Shown here: one piece after another, positions 6,090 through 57,235 of the stretch
Numbering within the stretch: position 1 is the stretch's first letter
Layout of the letters: the number at the start of each line of letters is the position of its first letter
Assembly: GCA_964479195.1 (NCBI GenBank)
Contig: CAYZLI010000001.1
Coordinates: 28,572 to 92,571 of the forward strand
Length of the DNA stretch: 64,000 bases
Direction of reading: 5' to 3'
Source: an uncultured Rhodocyclaceae bacterium
GTDB taxonomy: Bacteria; Pseudomonadota; Gammaproteobacteria; Burkholderiales; Rhodocyclaceae
Position numbers and translations under genes: made by a program
Notes under the pieces: generated by a model
Database searches by the model: none
Told to the model about the DNA's origin: nothing
The model's input: the letters and a program-made list of their open reading frames with translations, nothing else

Positions 6090-6095
6090 TACATC

Positions 6096-6173
6096 GTAGG
6101 GCGCATTAGGCGCAGCCGTAATGCGCCGGATCGGCGAATATCCGGCGCATTACGCTTCGCCATTGCGCCCTAC
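6096..6173. repeat. GTAG-type REP doublet (REPIN-like)
   Basis: GTAGGGCGCATTAGGCGCAGCCGTAATGCGCC ... GGCGCATTACGCTTCGCCATTGCGCCCTAC, inverted pair between convergent genes. Confidence 0.8.
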
Positions 6174-6187
6174 AGGGGGTACGGGGA

Positions 6188-7069
6188 TTACCGGGAAGCC
6201 ACCGGCTCGAAATAGCGCGCCCGGTAGAGCAGCCGCTTGCGCGTCTCGCTGTCGGTGAAGGCCTGACGGTCGTGCAGGACGTTGTTGCACACCAGGCCCA
6301 TGCCGGGCTCCAGCCGGCCGCGGAAGATGTAGGGACTGTCGCCGGCCAATACCCGTTCCAGGGCGGCCACGGCGGCCTTCGTGGCGGCATCCTGCTTCCA
6401 TTCGATGCTCACCGTGCGCGCCGTGTAGCGCATGTGCAGCTTTCCGTCCGGATAGACGGCAAACACCGGCCCCGGCTGGGTGGGGCGCGCCACGGCCCCG
6501 TCCCCCAGCCGCGGCGGGATGGTCATGGCATCCGGCGCCATGAGGGCGCGGATATGCTCCGGGTCTTCGTCGCGCAGCAGGAGGTAGGCGATCTCGTGGT
6601 CCATGAGCTGGTTCTCGCCGCCCGATTCCGCGCTCTCCACGCAATGCAGCAGCAGGCCGTGCACCTGGCGGTCCAGCGTGTTGTAGTAGCCGTCGGTGTG
6701 CCACTTGATGCCGCGGTTGGTGTACGGGATGAACTCCGTGCGGGTGCCGGCCGGGGCCACCGCCAGCGGAGAAATGCCGTCGTCGTCAGCCAGCATGTTG
6801 GCGTCCAGGCGCGCCAATCCGAGCTGCAGTCCCAGCTTGCGCGGAATGTCCTTGTCGGGATCGCGTCCGGTGCGCGAGACGTAGAGCGCCATGTTGGCAC
6901 TGGCGCAGCGGGACAGCAGCGCATCGCGCTGCGCCGGCGTGAGGCGGCGCGGATCGTCGATCTCGACCACCAGTTCGGCGAGGCTGCGCGGATGAGCGGC
7001 CAGCTTGCGCTCGCGCCACGCCGCGTAGGCGTCGGCGTTGCCCAGATGAAAGTGAGCCAGGTTCTTCAT
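6188..7069 (-). CDS. TauD/TfdA-like Fe(II)/2-oxoglutarate oxygenase-fold protein
   Basis: WHTDGYY (HxD), GGEN, NNVLHDR (third His), LLYRARY; ATGA overlap with upstream gene. Confidence 0.8.
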   Translation of the reverse strand: MKNLAHFHLGNADAYAAWRERKLAAHPRSLAELVVEIDDPRRLTPAQRDALLSRCASANMALYVSRTGRDPDKDIPRKLGLQLGLARLDANMLADDDGISPLAVAPAGTRTEFIPYTNRGIKWHTDGYYNTLDRQVHGLLLHCVESAESGGENQLMDHEIAYLLLRDEDPEHIRALMAPDAMTIPPRLGDGAVARPTQPGPVFAVYPDGKLHMRYTARTVSIEWKQDAATKAAVAALERVLAGDSPYIFRGRLEPGMGLVCNNVLHDRQAFTDSETRKRLLYRARYFEPVASR

Positions 7070-7674
7070 TGTCCGGATACCGTCGGCCCGGAACGGCGGC
7101 CGCCTTGTTCGTCCTTGCCAAAAAGCCCCTTCAGGGTCTTCTCGATCGCCTTGACGCCCTCCGGCGCCTCGATCTCCATGACCTGATCGTAGACCCAGGT
7201 GCGATCCTTCGACCGCATGCCGTCGCGCACCCGCGCCGCGAAACAGCGGCGGAAGCCGAAGTCCGGCCCCTCGGCGCCGTAGCCATACTCGGCGTAGTCG
7301 GCCCCGGCGGCGTTGAACAGTTCGAGGAAGTGCTTGCGGCACTCCCCCGGGACGCCGGTCTCGAGCAGCATGTCGGCGTTTTCCTCGATCGCCTCCGCCA
7401 TGCGGATCGCCAGCGCCGTGGTGAACTCGGCCCGCGGCTCCGCTTCCAGTTCGCGGAAGGCGATGCGGTCGGCCACCTGGGCGTAGAAGGCCATCGACTC
7501 GCAGGCGAAATCGAAATAGGGCCGGCCCAGGTCGATGTCGAACTTCGCCTCGCGCATGCGCTTGATGGAGTCGATGGCGAGCTTCCAGGCCAGCATGGCC
7601 ACCACGCTGGCCAGCTCCTTCATGGAGCGTGCGCGCCCGGCGGCGTGGAAGCGGCTGCGGATGCGGATAGCCAT
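7066..7674 (-). CDS. Conserved hypothetical protein (202 aa) in dsr-accessory operon
   Basis: Typical codon usage, translationally coupled to the TauD-like gene. Confidence 0.75.
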   Translation of the reverse strand: MAIRIRSRFHAAGRARSMKELASVVAMLAWKLAIDSIKRMREAKFDIDLGRPYFDFACESMAFYAQVADRIAFRELEAEPRAEFTTALAIRMAEAIEENADMLLETGVPGECRKHFLELFNAAGADYAEYGYGAEGPDFGFRRCFAARVRDGMRSKDRTWVYDQVMEIEAPEGVKAIEKTLKGLFGKDEQGGRRSGPTVSGQ

Positions 7675-7686
7675 GGTCAGGATCCC

Positions 7687-7769
7687 GTAGATTCCGGGCG
7701 CAATAGCCGCGCAGCGGTGTATTGCGCCGAAAACATCCGGCGCAATGCGCTACGCTTATTGCGCCCTAC
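7687..7769. repeat. GTAG-type REP doublet (REPIN-like), second copy
   Basis: GTAG(attcc)GGGCGCAATAGCC...TATTGCGCC ... GGCGCAATGCGCTACGCTTATTGCGCCCTAC. Confidence 0.8.
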
Positions 7770-7788
7770 TCGGTCAAAAACGGCGCTC

Positions 7789-8127
7789 TCAGTAGCCTCC
7801 TTTGCCGTAAGGTTGGGGGAGCCCCGCGACCTTGCAGCCCTGCTTGGCGGCACCGCCGGCGGGGAAGAGGTCGAACAGCTTCTTGCTGTCGGCCTCCGGC
7901 ATGACGTCCTCGTCCTGCAAGGCCTTGATCATGTTGCGCAGGCTCGGCGTATGGCCGTCCTCGCGGTACTTGTCGCGCAGGAAGCCGATGACTTTCATGT
8001 GCTCGTCGCTCAGGGCAAGGCCCTCGGCGGCGGCGATGACCTGCACCGCCTCGTCGCTGAAATCCGGCTCCAGCAGGTAGCCGTCGGCATCGGTCTCCTT
8101 CTCGACTCCGTTGATCACATAGGTCAT
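7789..8127 (-). CDS. DsrC/TusE-family paralog lacking the C-terminal Cys (RspA-type)
   Basis: ETDADGYLL...LSDEH..VIGFLR...LFDLFP..GAAKQGCKVAGLP, ending QPYGKGGY. Confidence 0.88.
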   Translation of the reverse strand: MTYVINGVEKETDADGYLLEPDFSDEAVQVIAAAEGLALSDEHMKVIGFLRDKYREDGHTPSLRNMIKALQDEDVMPEADSKKLFDLFPAGGAAKQGCKVAGLPQPYGKGGY

Positions 8128-8218: not shown

Positions 8219-8698
8219 CTATTTCTTGCGCAGGTAGAACTCGTAGGAGCCGCGGGCGATCTCCACGCGGGCGGCCAGTTCGAGGGCTGTGCTCCTAACC
8301 CAGGCGTCCACGTCCGCCGGCGTGCCGGGGCAGTTGCTGACGAGCAGCAGCACCTCGCCCGGATTCATGCTCTCCAGCAGCTTCTTCGCCTCGAGGATGG
8401 GACCCGGGCAGGACAGGCCGCGCACGTCCAGCACCGCGTTGGCCGTGGGTCGGGTCGCGCCTGCGCCCTTCTTGATGGTGTAGGCGGCCTTGGCGCCGTC
8501 CAGCTTCTTGGTCTCGACGACCTCGTTGCCCGTCTGGCGCGCCCAGGCGAAGAGATCATCGGAGGTGCCCGGGCAGTCCGAGACCAGCAGCATGGTCTGG
8601 CCGGCCTCCATGTCGTCGACGATCTTCTTGGCGCCGATCAGGGGCGCCGGGCAGGACAGGCCGCTCATGTCCAGGGTTACGGCGGGTTTTGTGCTCAT
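8219..8698 (-). CDS. Tandem two-domain TusA-family sulfur carrier
   Basis: Two repeats, LDMSGLSCPAP and LDVRGLSCPGP, each followed by LLVS(D/N)CPGT. Confidence 0.88.
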   Translation of the reverse strand: MSTKPAVTLDMSGLSCPAPLIGAKKIVDDMEAGQTMLLVSDCPGTSDDLFAWARQTGNEVVETKKLDGAKAAYTIKKGAGATRPTANAVLDVRGLSCPGPILEAKKLLESMNPGEVLLLVSNCPGTPADVDAWVRSTALELAARVEIARGSYEFYLRKK

Positions 8699-8726: not shown

Positions 8727-9320
8727 TCAGGCCGCGACGGCCGCCAGCGACTTGTGCGGCACAAAAATACCGCACCCCAGCTTGCGTCCCTGGCCCAAGC
8801 CCGTTTCCTGCATGGCGAGCGACTGCTCCGGCGTCAAGCCATGCAGCAGCAGGCTGAAGCCGCGCACCTCGCCTTCCGGAATCGCCGCCCGGTGGGGCTT
8901 GCCGCAGATCATCGTACAGGCGAGCCCCACTTCGCGGAGCAGGGCCGTGGCCCGGCTCAGGAATTCCGCTTCGTCCGCCGGTCCCGTGCTGACGAAATGG
9001 GAGTACTGCGTGGCGTGGGGCGCCAGTTCCCGCAGGCGCCCGGCGCCCACCTCGAGCCCCGTCCCCACGTCGAGCAGCGCCCCTTCCAGCACCGCCGCCT
9101 GCGGCACCCGGTGCGCCGGCAGCCGCAGGATCAGCTTGGCGCGGCGCCCGAGAAAGATCTCGCCGATGTCCGACACCGTGCCGTAGATCGGGTGCACCCC
9201 GGCGTCCGGTTCGTCCTCCAGCCAATCCAGCCGCGCCGACAAGGCGCGAAACAGGCTGTAGCCGTGGTCGCGAGGCACCCGCTGGCCGCGCAGATCGAAG
9301 ACCACATCCGCCACGCTCAT
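8727..9320 (-). CDS. cas6: Stand-alone Cas6 (type I-MYXAN/Cmx6-like) RAMP endoribonuclease homolog
   Basis: N-terminal F.L.G..VPRDHGYSLFRAL, GVHPI, LILRLP; C-terminal G-loop GLGQGRKLGCGIFVP. Confidence 0.85.
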   Translation of the reverse strand: MSVADVVFDLRGQRVPRDHGYSLFRALSARLDWLEDEPDAGVHPIYGTVSDIGEIFLGRRAKLILRLPAHRVPQAAVLEGALLDVGTGLEVGAGRLRELAPHATQYSHFVSTGPADEAEFLSRATALLREVGLACTMICGKPHRAAIPEGEVRGFSLLLHGLTPEQSLAMQETGLGQGRKLGCGIFVPHKSLAAVAA

Positions 9321-9550
9321 GGCTGATCCGCCTGCTCCTGCCGCTTCGCCCAGTCGAGCAGGGCCTGGCCCCAACGGGCCGCGGTCACCGCGTCGATGTC
9401 GAATATGGTGAAGCGCTTCTTCTCGCGGATGCGCAGCCTCAGCATGGGGGTGCCGCCGGATAGATACTCCACCTGCTGCAGCTCGATCTCCTGGCCCCAG
9501 ATGGGGGCGGTGAACTTGTCCAGCGGGGTAATCCGTTCCTTCTCGTCCAT
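9317..9550 (-). CDS. Small conserved protein (77 aa), first gene of the accessory operon
   Basis: GGAAGG RBS; LRLRIREKKRFTIFDID...W...LLDWA; ATGA-coupled to cas6. Confidence 0.75.
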   Translation of the reverse strand: MDEKERITPLDKFTAPIWGQEIELQQVEYLSGGTPMLRLRIREKKRFTIFDIDAVTAARWGQALLDWAKRQEQADQP

Positions 9551-9794
9551 GCGGCGGCGCCCTTCCATATGAGCATCGGCCGAAATATGCCCTCCGCCAT
9601 CGCCCCCGCCTATCACCGGCATGGCGTGCCGGCACATAACCCTTTCGGGTAGGTTTTCCCTAACTCCACAGGTGCCGGGCGATACCCTGCGAGAGTGATA
9701 GAGCATCGCAGTGCACCATGCGTAGTATCAGCGCCACCTTATAGACCAAAGTCCCCAGCAGCACCGTACAACCGTAAACGCAACGGAGACAAAC

Positions 9795-11090
9795 ATGGCC
9801 AAGAAAATGCACGATCTGCCCAACCTCGACCAATTGGAATCGGGCCCCTGGCCCAGCTTCGTCACCGGCCTGAAGCGTCTGGCGAAGGACAAGGACTACG
9901 CGGTCGATATTCTGGGTCACCTGGAACACTCGTACAAGACGCGCAAGGGCTACTGGAAAGGTGGCACGGTGGGCGTCTTCGGCTACGGCGGCGGCGTCAT
10001 TCCCCGCTTTACCGAGATCAAGGACGGCAAGGAACAGCCGGTCTTCAAGGACGCGGCCGAGTTCCACACCATCCGCATCATGCCGCCGGCGGGCATGCAC
10101 TACAACACCGACACCCTGCGCAAGTTCTGCGACGTCTGGGATAAGTACGGCTCCGGCCTGATCGCCTTCCACGGCCAGAGCGGCGACATCATGTTCCAGG
10201 GCTGCACCACGGAGAACGTGCAAAAGGCCTGGGACGCGATCAACGAGATGGGCTTCGACATGGGCGGTGCCGGCCCGGCCGTGCGCACTTCCATGTCCTG
10301 CGTCGGCGCGGCCCGCTGCGAGCAGTCCTGCTACGACGAGGCGGCGGCCCACCGCAGCATCATCAACGCCTTCACCGACGACATCCACCGTCCGGCCCTG
10401 CCCTACAAGTTCAAGTTCAAGTTCTCCGGCTGCCCGAACGACTGCATGAACTCCATCCAGCGCGCGGACATGGCCGTGATCGGCACCTGGCGCGACAACA
10501 TCCAGACGGACGAGGCCCTGGCCAAGAAATGGTTCGCCAAGCACGGCCTGAACGAACTGGTGAACGACGTCGTCGGCATGTGCCCGACCCGCGCCATCCA
10601 GTTGAAGAACATCAAGGATGTGGCCAAGGATGGCAGCGTCTCCAGCGTCGCCGTCAACGACACCCAGGCGCTGGAAATCCAGAACCGCGACTGCGTGCGC
10701 TGCATGCACTGCATCAACGTCATGACCGGGGCGCTCTCCCCGGGCAAGGACCGCGGCGCCAGCATCCTGGTGGGCGGCAAGCGCACCCTGAAGATCGGCG
10801 ACCTGATGGGCACCGTGGTCGTGCCGTTCATCAAGCTGGACACCGAGGAAGACCGCGAAGCCCTGCTCGACCTGGCCAAGCGCGTCGTCGATTTCTTCGC
10901 CGAGAACGCCCTGGAGCACGAGCGCACCGGCGAGATGATCGAGCGCATCGGCCTGGTGAACTTCCTGGAAGGCCTGGATCTGGAGATCGACCCGAACATG
11001 GTCTCCAACCCCCGCACGAACCCCTACATCCGCATGGATGGCTGGGACGAGGAAGTGGCCAAGATCAAGGCGAAGAAGGCCGCGGCCTGA
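9795..11090 (+). CDS. dsrA: Reverse dissimilatory sulfite reductase alpha subunit
   Basis: LDQLESGPWPSFV, WKGG.VGVFGYGGG, CVGAARC, YKFKFKFSGCPNDC, CVRCMHC. Confidence 0.98.
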   Translation: MAKKMHDLPNLDQLESGPWPSFVTGLKRLAKDKDYAVDILGHLEHSYKTRKGYWKGGTVGVFGYGGGVIPRFTEIKDGKEQPVFKDAAEFHTIRIMPPAGMHYNTDTLRKFCDVWDKYGSGLIAFHGQSGDIMFQGCTTENVQKAWDAINEMGFDMGGAGPAVRTSMSCVGAARCEQSCYDEAAAHRSIINAFTDDIHRPALPYKFKFKFSGCPNDCMNSIQRADMAVIGTWRDNIQTDEALAKKWFAKHGLNELVNDVVGMCPTRAIQLKNIKDVAKDGSVSSVAVNDTQALEIQNRDCVRCMHCINVMTGALSPGKDRGASILVGGKRTLKIGDLMGTVVVPFIKLDTEEDREALLDLAKRVVDFFAENALEHERTGEMIERIGLVNFLEGLDLEIDPNMVSNPRTNPYIRMDGWDEEVAKIKAKKAAA

Positions 11091-12571: not shown

Positions 12572-12838
12572 GGAGCTCAACCGTGAATAATTCATGGGAT
12601 GCGTTGCGGCCAATAGGCCCGGATGCAAGGCGCGGCGACGCAGCAATGCCCGCCGCCTTGCAAGGAGCCGCAACGCCGCAGCCGGGCCTATTGGCCGCAA
12701 CCCTTCGGGACGGGGGTATCCGGCCCGCATGGCTGCGTTGCTCGTCGCTTATTTGGAAGACCAAACGGCGCTCCTCGCGCCTTGCCCTGCGAGCCGGATA
12801 CCCCCGTCGCACCCACGAATTATTTACGGATGAGCTCC
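12572..12838. mobile_element. MITE-like element with ~27-bp terminal inverted repeats and two internal hairpins, between dsrE and dsrF
   Basis: GGAGCTCAACCGTGAATAATTCATGGG vs revcomp GGAGCTCATCCGTAAATAATTCGTGGG; perfect 20-bp stem 12603-12622/12682-12701 and 16-bp stem 12709-12724/12793-12808. Confidence 0.8.
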
Positions 12839-12860
12839 AAACGCTCGGGGAGACATCGCG

Positions 12861-24276: not shown

Positions 24277-24945
24277 CTACTTCTCCGCCGCCGGCCGCAT
24301 CTTCTGCTCCACGGCGAACACCGCCGCTTCGACGCGGGAGGTGAGGTTGAGCTTGGACAGGATGTGGCGCACGTGCAGCTTGACCGTGTCGTGGGAGATG
24401 TCCAGCGCCCGGGCAATGGCCTTGTTGGACAGCCCGTGCGCCAAGTGATCCAGGATCTCCCGCTCGCGGCCGGTAAGGTGCGCGAGCAGGTTCTCCCGCG
24501 TGGCGCTCTTCGGCCCCGTCTGCAGGAGATTGACCAGCTTCAGGGTCATGGCCGGCGCCACCACCGTCTCGCCGCGCACCGCCCGCTGGATGGCATCCAC
24601 CACGTCGTCCGGCTCCATGTCCTTGAGCAGGTAGCCGCGCGCCCCGGCGCGCATGGCGTTGGCCAGGTCGTCCTCCGCATCGCTCACGGTGAGGATCAGC
24701 GTGGGCCCCGTCCAGCCCGCCGCCTGCAGCTCCCGCAGCAGGGCCAGTCCGCCGTGGGGCGGCATGTTGAGGTCCAGGATCAGCACCTCGGGCCGCTGCT
24801 CCTGGAGCAGGTGGGAAGCCTCGTCCGGATTGCTGGTGGCGCCGACCACCCGGATGCCGTCCCGTCCATCGAGCAGTTCCGCCAGTCCCTTGCGGAACAG
24901 GGTGTGGTCGTCGACCAGCATCACCTTGGTGACGCTTTCCGTCAT
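24277..24945 (-). CDS. NarL/LuxR-family response regulator
   Basis: LVDDH..FRKG, LDLNMP, GARGYLLKD, LTGRE.EIL...GLSNKAIA...TVKLHVR. Confidence 0.93.
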   Translation of the reverse strand: MTESVTKVMLVDDHTLFRKGLAELLDGRDGIRVVGATSNPDEASHLLQEQRPEVLILDLNMPPHGGLALLRELQAAGWTGPTLILTVSDAEDDLANAMRAGARGYLLKDMEPDDVVDAIQRAVRGETVVAPAMTLKLVNLLQTGPKSATRENLLAHLTGREREILDHLAHGLSNKAIARALDISHDTVKLHVRHILSKLNLTSRVEAAVFAVEQKMRPAAEK

Positions 24946-24980
24946 GCGGTCTCCCATCCGAGCTCGGCGCCGCAGGCGCC

Positions 24981-26399: not shown

Positions 26400-27089
26400 C
26401 TACCCCTTGCCCGGCCGTTCATGCCCGCCCGCACCCGGCGACCGAACCCCCGGAGACTCCCGTTTCACCGCGAGCACCGCCGCCTCGGTGCGGCTGCGCA
26501 CCTGCAGCTTCTGCAGTATGAGCGTCACGTAATGCTTCACGGTCTTCTCCGCAAGGTGCAGGCGCTCGCCGATTTCGCGATTGGTGCAACCCTGACCGAT
26601 CAGGCCCAGGACCTCGGCCTCCCGCGCCGTAAGTTCGCACAGCGGATCGGACGCAACCGGGCGGGAAAACTCGAAGAGCAGCTCCGCGGCCAGCGCCGGC
26701 GTGATGTAGGCCTCCCCGCCGGCGACCCGGCGCGCGGCGGAGCGCAGCTCGCTCGCCGACACGCCTTTCAGGACGTAGCCGTGCGCGCCGGCCTTCAAGG
26801 CGGCAAACAGGCTGTCCCGATCCTCGGACACGGTGAGCATCATGATGCGCACCCCCGGCAAGTCCGCGGCGATCTGCCCCGCGGCGGCAATGCCCCCCAT
26901 GCCGGGCATGCCGATGTCCAGCAGCACCATGTCGGGACGCAGGCGGTGCGCGAGTTCCACGGCCTCTTCCGCGCTACCCGCCTGGGCGACGACCTCGAGG
27001 TCGGCGTCGGCGCCCAGGGAGTGGGCGACCCCCTCCCGGAACAACGGATGATCGTCGGCGAGCAGGATGCGGATTGGACCGGTGCCCAT
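26400..27089 (-). CDS. LuxR-family response regulator
   Basis: LADDHPLFREG, LLDIGMP, LTAREAEVL...TNREIG...TVKHYV. Confidence 0.93.
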   Translation of the reverse strand: MGTGPIRILLADDHPLFREGVAHSLGADADLEVVAQAGSAEEAVELAHRLRPDMVLLDIGMPGMGGIAAAGQIAADLPGVRIMMLTVSEDRDSLFAALKAGAHGYVLKGVSASELRSAARRVAGGEAYITPALAAELLFEFSRPVASDPLCELTAREAEVLGLIGQGCTNREIGERLHLAEKTVKHYVTLILQKLQVRSRTEAAVLAVKRESPGVRSPGAGGHERPGKG

Positions 27090-57150: not shown

Positions 57151-57235
57151 TGGTGCCGACGGTGAGACTCGAACTCACACGGCTTGCGCCACCGCCCCCT
57201 CAAGACGGCGTGTCTACCAATTTCACCACGTCGGC
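57151..57235 (-). tRNA. tRNA-Leu (GAG)
   Basis: GCCGACGTGGTGAAATTGGTAGACACGCCGTCTTGAGGGGGCGG...GTTCGAGTCTCACCGTCGGCACCA; long variable arm; canonical position after secG. Confidence 0.95.

Follow-up and report, generated by a model that had tools for sequence, protein, structure and literature searches.

The window analyzed in this study is a 64,000-nucleotide stretch of DNA from an uncultured Rhodocyclaceae bacterium. On its minus strand, between positions 8727 and 9320, it carries an intact gene that profiles, a structure model, and an alignment identify as encoding a Dsr-associated protein of the Cas6/Cmx6 family, 197 amino acids (aa) in length. A sequence-only reading of this DNA had attributed Cas6 hallmarks to the open reading frame, and all three motifs were seen in the translation: DHGY at residues 18 to 21, GVHPI at residues 41 to 45, and GLGQGRKLGCGIF at residues 174 to 186. 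The search against Cas6 profiles proposed by the same reading returned strong matches to both TIGR02807 (cas6_cmx6; 146.5 bits, cutoff of 98.85) and PF09559 (181.1 bits, cutoff of 26.7). An AlphaFold2 model built from a 90-sequence alignment (mean pLDDT of 95.7) predicted a double RRM (RAMP) fold followed by a C-terminal glycine-rich loop (G-loop; residues 174 to 186). The best structural matches of this model were 8fcu_B and 8fcj_B, the Cas6 chains of type I-B CAST Cascade, with TM scores of 0.89 to 0.90, an rmsd of 1.7, and 27 to 28% identity in Foldseek. In VIA, the comparison with Cascade Cas6 yielded a Z score of 26.4, and the next Cas6 scored 16.9. The Asp-His motif (D18-H19) at the start of helix 1 is present; we presume it to be the catalytic motif of Cmx6, by analogy with other Cas6 proteins. 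The GC3 of the gene (0.88) is similar to that of the neighboring genes, and a phage collection contained no match.

The gene is part of a minus-strand operon with the order DUF6967, cas6, tandem tusA, a gene for a Cys-less DsrC-family protein, a gene for a 202-aa protein, and a TauD-like dioxygenase gene. The first of these (9317 to 9550) encodes a 77-aa DUF6967 protein, and its stop codon overlaps the ATG of cas6 at 9317 to 9320, in agreement with the ATGA coupling to a small upstream gene that had been proposed. Downstream of cas6 lie the tandem tusA (8219 to 8698), with profile matches to two PF01206 domains and with Cys16 and Cys97, and the DsrC-family gene (7789 to 8127), assigned by profile and sequence, whose product ends in KGGY. 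They are followed by the conserved gene for the 202-aa protein (7066 to 7674), which was recognized by its conservation and matched no family in Pfam, NCBIfam, or the Atlas, and by the TauD-like dioxygenase gene (6188 to 7069), identified by profile. The latter is dsrQ of Lenk et al. (2012) according to PMC7596348, which cites that work for a TauD-like dsrQ located upstream of and opposite to dsr. On the plus strand, dsrA (9795 to 11090; identified by profile) is the first gene of the oxidative operon dsrABEFHCMKL...PN that faces the cas6 operon. Its start lies 244 bp from that of the DUF6967 gene, so the divergent region shared with dsrA is as had been described. The earlier description of tandem TusA and DsrC-like genes following cas6 applies to both gene families, but the DsrC-like protein is devoid of C-terminal cysteines.

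Without C-terminal redox cysteines, the product of the gene at 7789 to 8127 cannot be a sulfur carrier of the DsrC/TusE type. Its terminus reads PYGKGGY, its single cysteine is C98, and residues K109, G110, G111, and Y112 were invariant in 84 rows of Cys-less DsrC proteins that were chosen for their GGY end. Judged by sequence, the protein fits the RspA class. Venceslau 2014 reportedly covers RspA, and a regulatory role has been proposed for the Cys-less class. RspA is named as one class within the DsrC/TusE/RspA family in PMC8477390.

Conservation of the operon was evaluated in 101 loci, consisting of the window, 20 regions, and the top 80 among 588 related loci, a set that is biased toward betaproteobacteria and includes some duplicates. 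In this set, Cas6 was present in 99 of the 101 loci, dsrA in 97, the Cys-less DsrC in 93, the 202-aa gene in 92, DUF6967 in 91, and the TauD gene in 70, the loci being mostly betaproteobacterial. A rhodanese gene was found in 49 of the same 101 loci and the tandem TusA gene in 43, and never were the two found together there. A two-domain rhodanese (L051:10634-11482(+)) and the tandem TusA of the window (8219-8698(-)) represent alternative occupants of the companion operon, which suggests that they are interchangeable sulfurtransferases. The prevailing order in another 40 regions at the class level was dsrA, a divergent tauD, a 60-aa gene, often a 235-aa gene, cas6, and the Cys-less dsrC. The most constant neighbor of cas6 in beta- and gammaproteobacterial loci is therefore the Cys-less DsrC, given its presence in 93 loci of the set (including the best 80 of 588) and its place in the class-level order. 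Behind the gamma-type cas6 of L190, L191, L202, and L206, we noticed a cluster of several genes of the 2OG-Fe(II) oxygenase, DUF6866, Rieske, and nitronate-monooxygenase-like types, a hint that the role of the module may be related to oxygen.

The model of DUF6967 (pLDDT of 92.7) shows a fold of four strands and one helix. Its top seven VIA rows were all PUR/PC4 proteins (Z scores of 6.2 to 7.9, rmsd of 2.1 to 5.5), among them PURA, Borrelia Pur-alpha, BPSL1147, and YdbC, at 6 to 16% identity. All Z scores were below 8, the Foldseek E values were 0.3 or worse, and COMMD domains scored almost equally well (Z of about 6). Conserved Arg and Phe residues are located on the strands. We regard a single-stranded nucleic-acid binder coupled to cas6 in betaproteobacteria as a lead only, derived from the predicted fold. 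Most gammaproteobacterial loci lacked DUF6967 and encoded unrelated small proteins upstream of cas6. Three small or helical families of about 60, 235, and 70 aa, without a Pfam match, flank the gamma-type cas6 in place of DUF6967 (for example, L193:7988-8191(-), L200:7437-8141(+), and L191:6371-6592(-)).

Between the divergent promoters, an array of imperfect palindromes spans positions 9613 to 9700 (neither strand assigned), as defined by a motif matrix and a comparison of loci. The strongest site is located at 9636 to 9652, with repeats at -23, +24, and +47 bp. The palindrome was found in 67 of 70 dereplicated betaproteobacterial loci compared to 1 of 350 shuffles, with a matrix trained on the same loci. 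In the genome to which the window belongs, there was a single strong site of 27 bits, the next one scoring 19. The beta-trained matrix found none of the 27 gamma-type promoters, and a related palindrome, whose pattern was picked by eye, preceded dsrA in 23 of the 27 gamma-type loci compared to 5 of 540 shuffles. The palindrome was also considered as an RNA hairpin, for which a 5-bp stem is possible in 36 of 67 loci on the dsrA strand and in 23 of 67 on the cas6 strand. Because of the small number of such stems and the position between two inferred -10 boxes, the palindrome is read as DNA, and the array is likely a DNA operator shared by both units. Two NarL/LuxR-type response regulators are encoded at the distal end of the dsr cluster (24277-24957(-) and 26400-27089(-)), and in 4 of the 5 genomes checked, an orthologue of the former lay no more than 30 kb from dsrA. 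A NarL/LuxR-type regulator from this end of the cluster is a candidate for the reader of the operator. In L204 and L197, the companion operon has a similar gene next to it. The 738-bp spacer upstream of dsrA in L062 contains two copies of a direct repeat (roughly 200 bp, with an internal palindrome), which is possibly a small mobile element.

Expression data are available for the homologue in A. vinosum, where Alvin_1248, three genes from dsrA, is annotated as Cas6-related (PMC11267869, Table S2). With elemental sulfur compared to sulfide, values of 17.7-, 6.3-, and 12.5-fold are listed for Alvin_1250, Alvin_1249, and Alvin_1248, respectively (P values of 0.002 to 0.009), those for dsrA, dsrB, and dsrE being 0.24, 0.17, and 0.09 and that for Alvin_1247 being 0.43. 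The true cas genes range from 0.3 to 1.8 where a value is given. These elemental-sulfur values are a recalculation by later authors from Weissgerber 2013 (PMC11267869). For pyrite compared to sulfide, Alvin_1248 stands at 1.1 and dsrA at 0.04. Alvin_1248 thus follows the sulfur source and not the CRISPR loci, and it does not simply rise with dsrAB; in the elemental-sulfur comparison, it changes in the opposite direction. Since it stays flat on pyrite while dsrA falls, its regulation is decoupled from, rather than strictly reciprocal to, that of dsrA.

The distribution of the gene was determined in 251 genomes of the same order and 401 genomes of the same class. Within the order, PF09559 was present in 51 genomes, dsrA in 52, and both in 50. 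The frequency of cas1 was 21 of 51 in Cas6 genomes and 71 of 200 in the others (Fisher P = 0.52), which leaves 30 of the 51 Cas6 genomes without a cas1 match. All 49 pairs of cas6 and dsrA on the same contig were divergent and 443 to 2,086 bp apart. Within the class, 126 genomes contained PF09559, 125 dsrA, and 120 both; in 98 cases the two genes shared a contig, and in 94 of these they were within 6 kb, every one of the 94 being divergent. The proposal that a solo Cas6 clade tracks rDsr genomes regardless of CRISPR is thus supported, as presence follows dsrA and shows no link to cas1. In the two samples combined, PF09559 was located within 6 kb of dsrA in at least 142 of 176 positive genomes, which makes "type I-MYXAN CRISPR-associated Cas6/Cmx6" a misleading label for these bacteria. 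The neighborhood survey placed the homologues in dsr loci, not mostly in cas loci as would be expected of ordinary Cas6 genes, and only two of the inspected genomes had cas6 in a cas operon. These were G269 and G519, which carry Cas6 without dsrA in true cas6-cas3-cas8-cas7-cas5 operons. The remaining Cas6-only genomes either carry DsrK (G048 and G647) or, with DsrK not over the cutoff, have the companion genes on contigs that are short or break off (G389, G508, and G360).

Seven genomes had dsrA without a PF09559 match, and two of them, G140 and G186, keep the companion operon minus cas6. Outside the class, none of 35 dsrA-positive genomes in a phylum sample of 201 genomes carried PF09559. 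Cas6 is consequently a lineage-specific accessory and, considering its absence beside dsrA in G140 and G186 as well, dispensable for rDsr chemistry. It co-occurs with and adjoins oxidative dsrAB in Gammaproteobacteria, including Betaproteobacteria, as an rDsr accessory does; the universal presence of a core rDsr component was not observed, with 0 of 35 outside the class. It should be noted that co-occurrence is inflated and events are overcounted in such samples, since linked genes move as a block and related genomes are not independent.

Physical linkage alone can yield co-occurrence, and together with the absence from other dsr lineages this would suit a neutral passenger that rides with the dsr gene block. 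Such a passenger is, however, highly improbable. The median dN/dS of cas6 was 0.18 (22 pairs), close to the 0.11 to 0.15 of its neighbors and compared to 0.07 for dsrA; the gene is under purifying selection. It has acquired new invariant residues (see below), it is retained in the 1.1-Mb genomes G408 and G552, and in four genomes of the class it persists at 75 kb to 1 Mb from dsrA. In G070 and G184 (L037 and L038), which belong to the order of the window, a gamma-type dsr cluster is accompanied by gamma-type cas6, tauD, and 235-aa genes, and the whole dsr/cas6 block was likely transferred into them. Purifying selection, retention in 1.1-Mb genomes and away from dsrA, and the joint gamma types of G070 and G184 argue that Cas6 is functional. 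Detached, intact cas6 genes (L174 to L177 and L183) were seen beside rpsF in G298 and G602 and beside rnc-era in G374, G527, and G647.

In the genome of the window (4.0 Mb, 329 contigs, 94.8% complete), the PF09559 gene is single copy. The absence of a CRISPR setting, previously claimed for the window, extends to these 329 contigs: Cas1, RAMP, and DevR profiles were not found, cas3_core had no match above the cutoff, and the check for arrays elsewhere in the genome, by two k-mer scans, returned none. Arrays often fail to assemble, and a missing array in a fragmented genome is therefore not proof of absence. A hidden array, together with the passing of both curated Cas6 models, could speak for an ordinary Cas6 that processes its CRISPR RNA in trans. 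We consider this extremely unlikely. Across the genome, two I-MYXAN repeats had no better matches than shuffled repeats did, 30 of the 51 Cas6 genomes mentioned above have no cas1 match, a true I-MYXAN cas6 precedes cas3-cas8-cas7-cas5, and the dsr-linked proteins form a clade of their own that has lost the predicted clamp residues. Taken together, it is very probable that this Cas6 has been exapted as an rDsr accessory.

In a tree of 61 sequences, calculated by a quick method, 50 dsr-side sequences were split from 11 canonical-side Cas6 sequences with an SH-aLRT support of 100; as the tree has no independent root, it is the wider Cas6 family from which the direction (CRISPR to dsr) is inferred. 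One canonical-side Cmx6, L171 on a plasmid of Gloeobacter morelensis, is flanked by hypothetical and PAPS-reductase-family genes, with no annotated cas3. Residues were compared after dereplication at 70% in 52 beta, 57 gamma, and 19 canonical sequences, four of the canonical rows coming from loci with a cas3 neighbor and the rest being assigned by annotation or similarity. The canonical Cmx6 core is basic, with a median pI of 9.7, a net charge of +7, and a pI above 8 in 19 of 19 sequences. The dsr-linked core has a median pI of 7.5 in beta (17 of 52 above 8) and 7.3 in gamma sequences (24 of 57 above 8) and a net charge of about 0; the protein of the window has a core pI of 6.5.

This difference in charge is reflected in individual positions. 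Lys or Arg occupied positions 113, 142, 148, and 178 in 100, 100, 78, and 100% of canonical sequences, respectively, compared to 0 to 7, 8 to 48, 1 to 3, and 0 to 5% of dsr-linked ones. Losses in the dsr-linked clade comprise Lys 113 (after strand 1 of the second RRM), R126, the basic beta-hairpin at 142 to 150, R178 (the first Arg of the G-loop), and H35. The protein of the window has no equivalents of K113, R142, R143, K148, K150, and R178, in an alignment that is gappy in the hairpin region. From the general anatomy of Cas6 proteins, we presume the lost basic residues to be the elements that grip the repeat hairpin. Neither these residues nor the cas3/8/7/5 context, usually with cas1/cas2, of a functional crRNA-processing Cas6 of type I-B/MYXAN was found. 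D18, H19, R66, Q171, R179, and GCG were kept, D18 being conserved in 87 to 92%, H19 in 69 to 96%, and R179 in 85 to 92% of the dsr-linked sequences. Position 19 is His in 69% of beta, 96% of gamma, and 100% of canonical sequences, Tyr in 26% of the dereplicated beta sequences, and Asn in the solved Cascade Cas6 8fcj_B, so that the presence of H19 says little about activity. RNA cutting by the retained D18-H19 pair would be putative only.

Gains in the dsr-linked clade were W33, R59, R60, E117, K141, H189, and K190 (a PHK tail), along with a stronger R97. R60, H189, and K190 are found in 84 to 100% of dsr-linked sequences compared to 15 to 52% of canonical ones. On the basis of secondary structure, the cleft between the two RRM sheets is where the gained residues are expected to point. 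Judging from what the clade has lost and gained, it is under selection for a different ligand, probably a polyanion. The neutral overall pI fits a complete loss of RNA binding equally well as a changed binding site.

RNA targets were searched for in the locus. REP-like palindromic repeats at 6093 to 6175 and 7686 to 7772 have about 130 copies in the genome, and a long REP-like element at 12576 to 12855, between dsrE and dsrF, has 9. The several strong intergenic hairpins that the sequence-only reading had noted are largely genome-wide repeats, and those near cas6 mostly turned out to be the repeats with about 130 copies. The Rfam scan of the window had a tRNA gene at 57154-57235(-) as its sole match, and RNA runs matched at most 0.10 of words, from relatives only and for contigs only, which made them uninformative. 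A synonymous-site scan of 15 genes, a weak test, revealed no window beyond codon bias, and a k-mer and folding scan of the spacers of 16 gene pairs revealed no conserved sequence. With the repeats of two true I-MYXAN arrays as the hairpin pattern, matches across loci were scattered, with at most 6 per position class. One match to the I-MYXAN repeat hairpin (GCCGTAAGG, near position 7805) lies opposite the PYG codons of the Cys-less dsrC, in antisense orientation; these codons vary freely in other loci, and the match was dismissed as chance.

These searches bear on the possibility that the protein is still a hairpin-specific endoribonuclease acting on dsr or companion-operon mRNA. Its fold is nearly identical to that of Cascade Cas6, D18, H19, and R179 are conserved to the degree given above, and among dereplicated spacers, a hairpin was present in all 67 that follow dsrC and in 42 of the 43 that follow the Cys-less dsrC. 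However, the sequences of these hairpins differ across loci, and they look like terminators or lineage-specific repeats; the scattered repeat-like matches and the loss of the basic clamp residues are likewise at odds with such an enzyme. We therefore judge it unlikely. The processing of dsr intergenic RNA at specific hairpins, as put forward by the sequence-only reading, is not supported: the loci yielded no hairpin conserved in sequence and no I-MYXAN-like site, and the predicted clamp residues are lost. With no conserved target, a hairpin-processing model is left without a substrate in the locus; a target could lie elsewhere in the transcriptome.

A second way of being exapted would dispense with RNA altogether, in line with the non-nuclease partner that the sequence-only reading had offered as its alternative. 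The double-RRM protein might be a scaffold or an anion binder of the sulfur relay that gates or protects DsrAB, and its partners might be the Cys-less DsrC (e.g., through the KGGY tail), DsrC, TusA or rhodanese, or a small sulfur anion; we hold both this role and this choice of partners as possible, though doubtful. The neutral pI and the loss of the predicted hairpin clamp are consistent with it, and no RNA target emerged from the locus searches. The nearest constant neighbor in both beta and gamma loci is the Cys-less DsrC, and the other neighbors encode sulfur carriers and oxygenases. A second cysteine, C139, is found in 54 to 61% of the dsr-linked sequences. In A. vinosum, Alvin_0345, a TusE/DsrC-family gene, rises 106-fold in elemental sulfur compared to sulfide (P = 0.095; PMC11267869). 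On the other hand, cas6 occurs without a nearby Cys-less DsrC in L046, L048, L059, L062, and L067, the reverse is seen in L041, and the protein has kept both its Asp-His motif and its G-loop. Canonical Cmx6 conserves C183 just as well (89%), so this cysteine is no sign of sulfur chemistry.

We tentatively prefer a different role, namely, that Cas6 is a single-stranded-RNA-binding, post-transcriptional tuner of reverse-Dsr sulfur oxidation, although the non-RNA scaffold is nearly as likely. For the RNA-binding tuner, the following course of events can be envisaged. A type I-B/MYXAN cas6 would have been acquired in a single event close to the base of the beta/gammaproteobacterial rDsr cluster. 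Both divergent units would be set by the shared operator, for which a NarL/LuxR-type regulator is the probable reader, such that the module may reach a comparatively high level in the absence of sulfide, when dsr is low. The ligand would be bound in the cleft between the RRM sheets by R60, K/R62, R66, R97, K141, H189, and K190, with the hairpin face unused. Cas6, the PUR/PC4-like protein, and the Cys-less DsrC could then adjust or dampen Dsr output when sulfide is scarce. The complete version, in which a Cas6 domesticated in the ancestor of the beta/gammaproteobacterial sulfur oxidizers and equipped with a new RNA cleft, together with the PUR/PC4-like protein and a Cys-less DsrC decoy, forms a post-transcriptional switch that is under an operator common with dsrAB and turns reverse-Dsr sulfur oxidation down or up, is put forward with a little more reserve than the tuner itself.

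The Cas6/Cmx6 family is known, and Alvin_1248 has been annotated for years. To our knowledge, the regulation of rDsr is poorly understood, and the present analysis brings out a companion operon that has yet to be studied, along with a probable operator that it shares with this pathway. A lone Cas protein kept for a nonimmune job in a globally important pathway represents a widespread and clear case; if the proposed switch is real, this would be the first Cas protein to serve central energy metabolism without an array, a guide, or Cascade. No link between Cas6 and dsr was found in the literature searched as full text, which covers neither the key papers of the Dahl laboratory and of Lenk nor most subscription journals, where it may be mentioned. 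The link was absent from passages of PMC10952691, PMC7596348, PMC5944118, PMC8477390, PMC11636981, PMC11267869, PMC8730458, PMC8616872, and PMC3368242. The term cas6 had 0 occurrences in PMC7596348 and PMC8477390, and a function for the dsr-linked Cas6 was not found in print.

Among known systems, the protein most resembles Cas6/Cmx6 (Cas6b) of type I-B MYXAN CRISPR-Cas and of I-B CAST, with which it shares the family models, the double-RRM fold, and the G-loop; D18, R66, Q171, R179, and GCG are common with canonical Cmx6. Unlike Cas6/Cmx6 of I-B MYXAN, the dsr-linked copy has no cas3/5/7/8/1/2 neighbors or array and is fixed beside dsrA. It differs from canonical Cmx6 in its separate clade, its neutral instead of basic surface, and the new W33, R59, R60, E117, K141, and PHK tail. 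The predicted four-strand/one-helix unit of DUF6967 resembles the PUR-alpha/PC4 family, but identity is 6 to 16% and Z is below 8. The dsrQ/RspA accessory genes of sulfur oxidizers, as described in PMC7596348 and PMC8477390, are the same divergent gene set. Array-less derivatives of CRISPR have been reviewed in PMC8730458, namely, the I-E cas5-6-7-8 genes of Streptomyces with a STAND NTPase and HRAMP, and similarly to our case, a Cas protein is kept there without an array or adaptation module. According to the same review, these derivatives keep multisubunit effectors that are predicted to be defense related, whereas here a single Cas6 stands among genes of energy metabolism.
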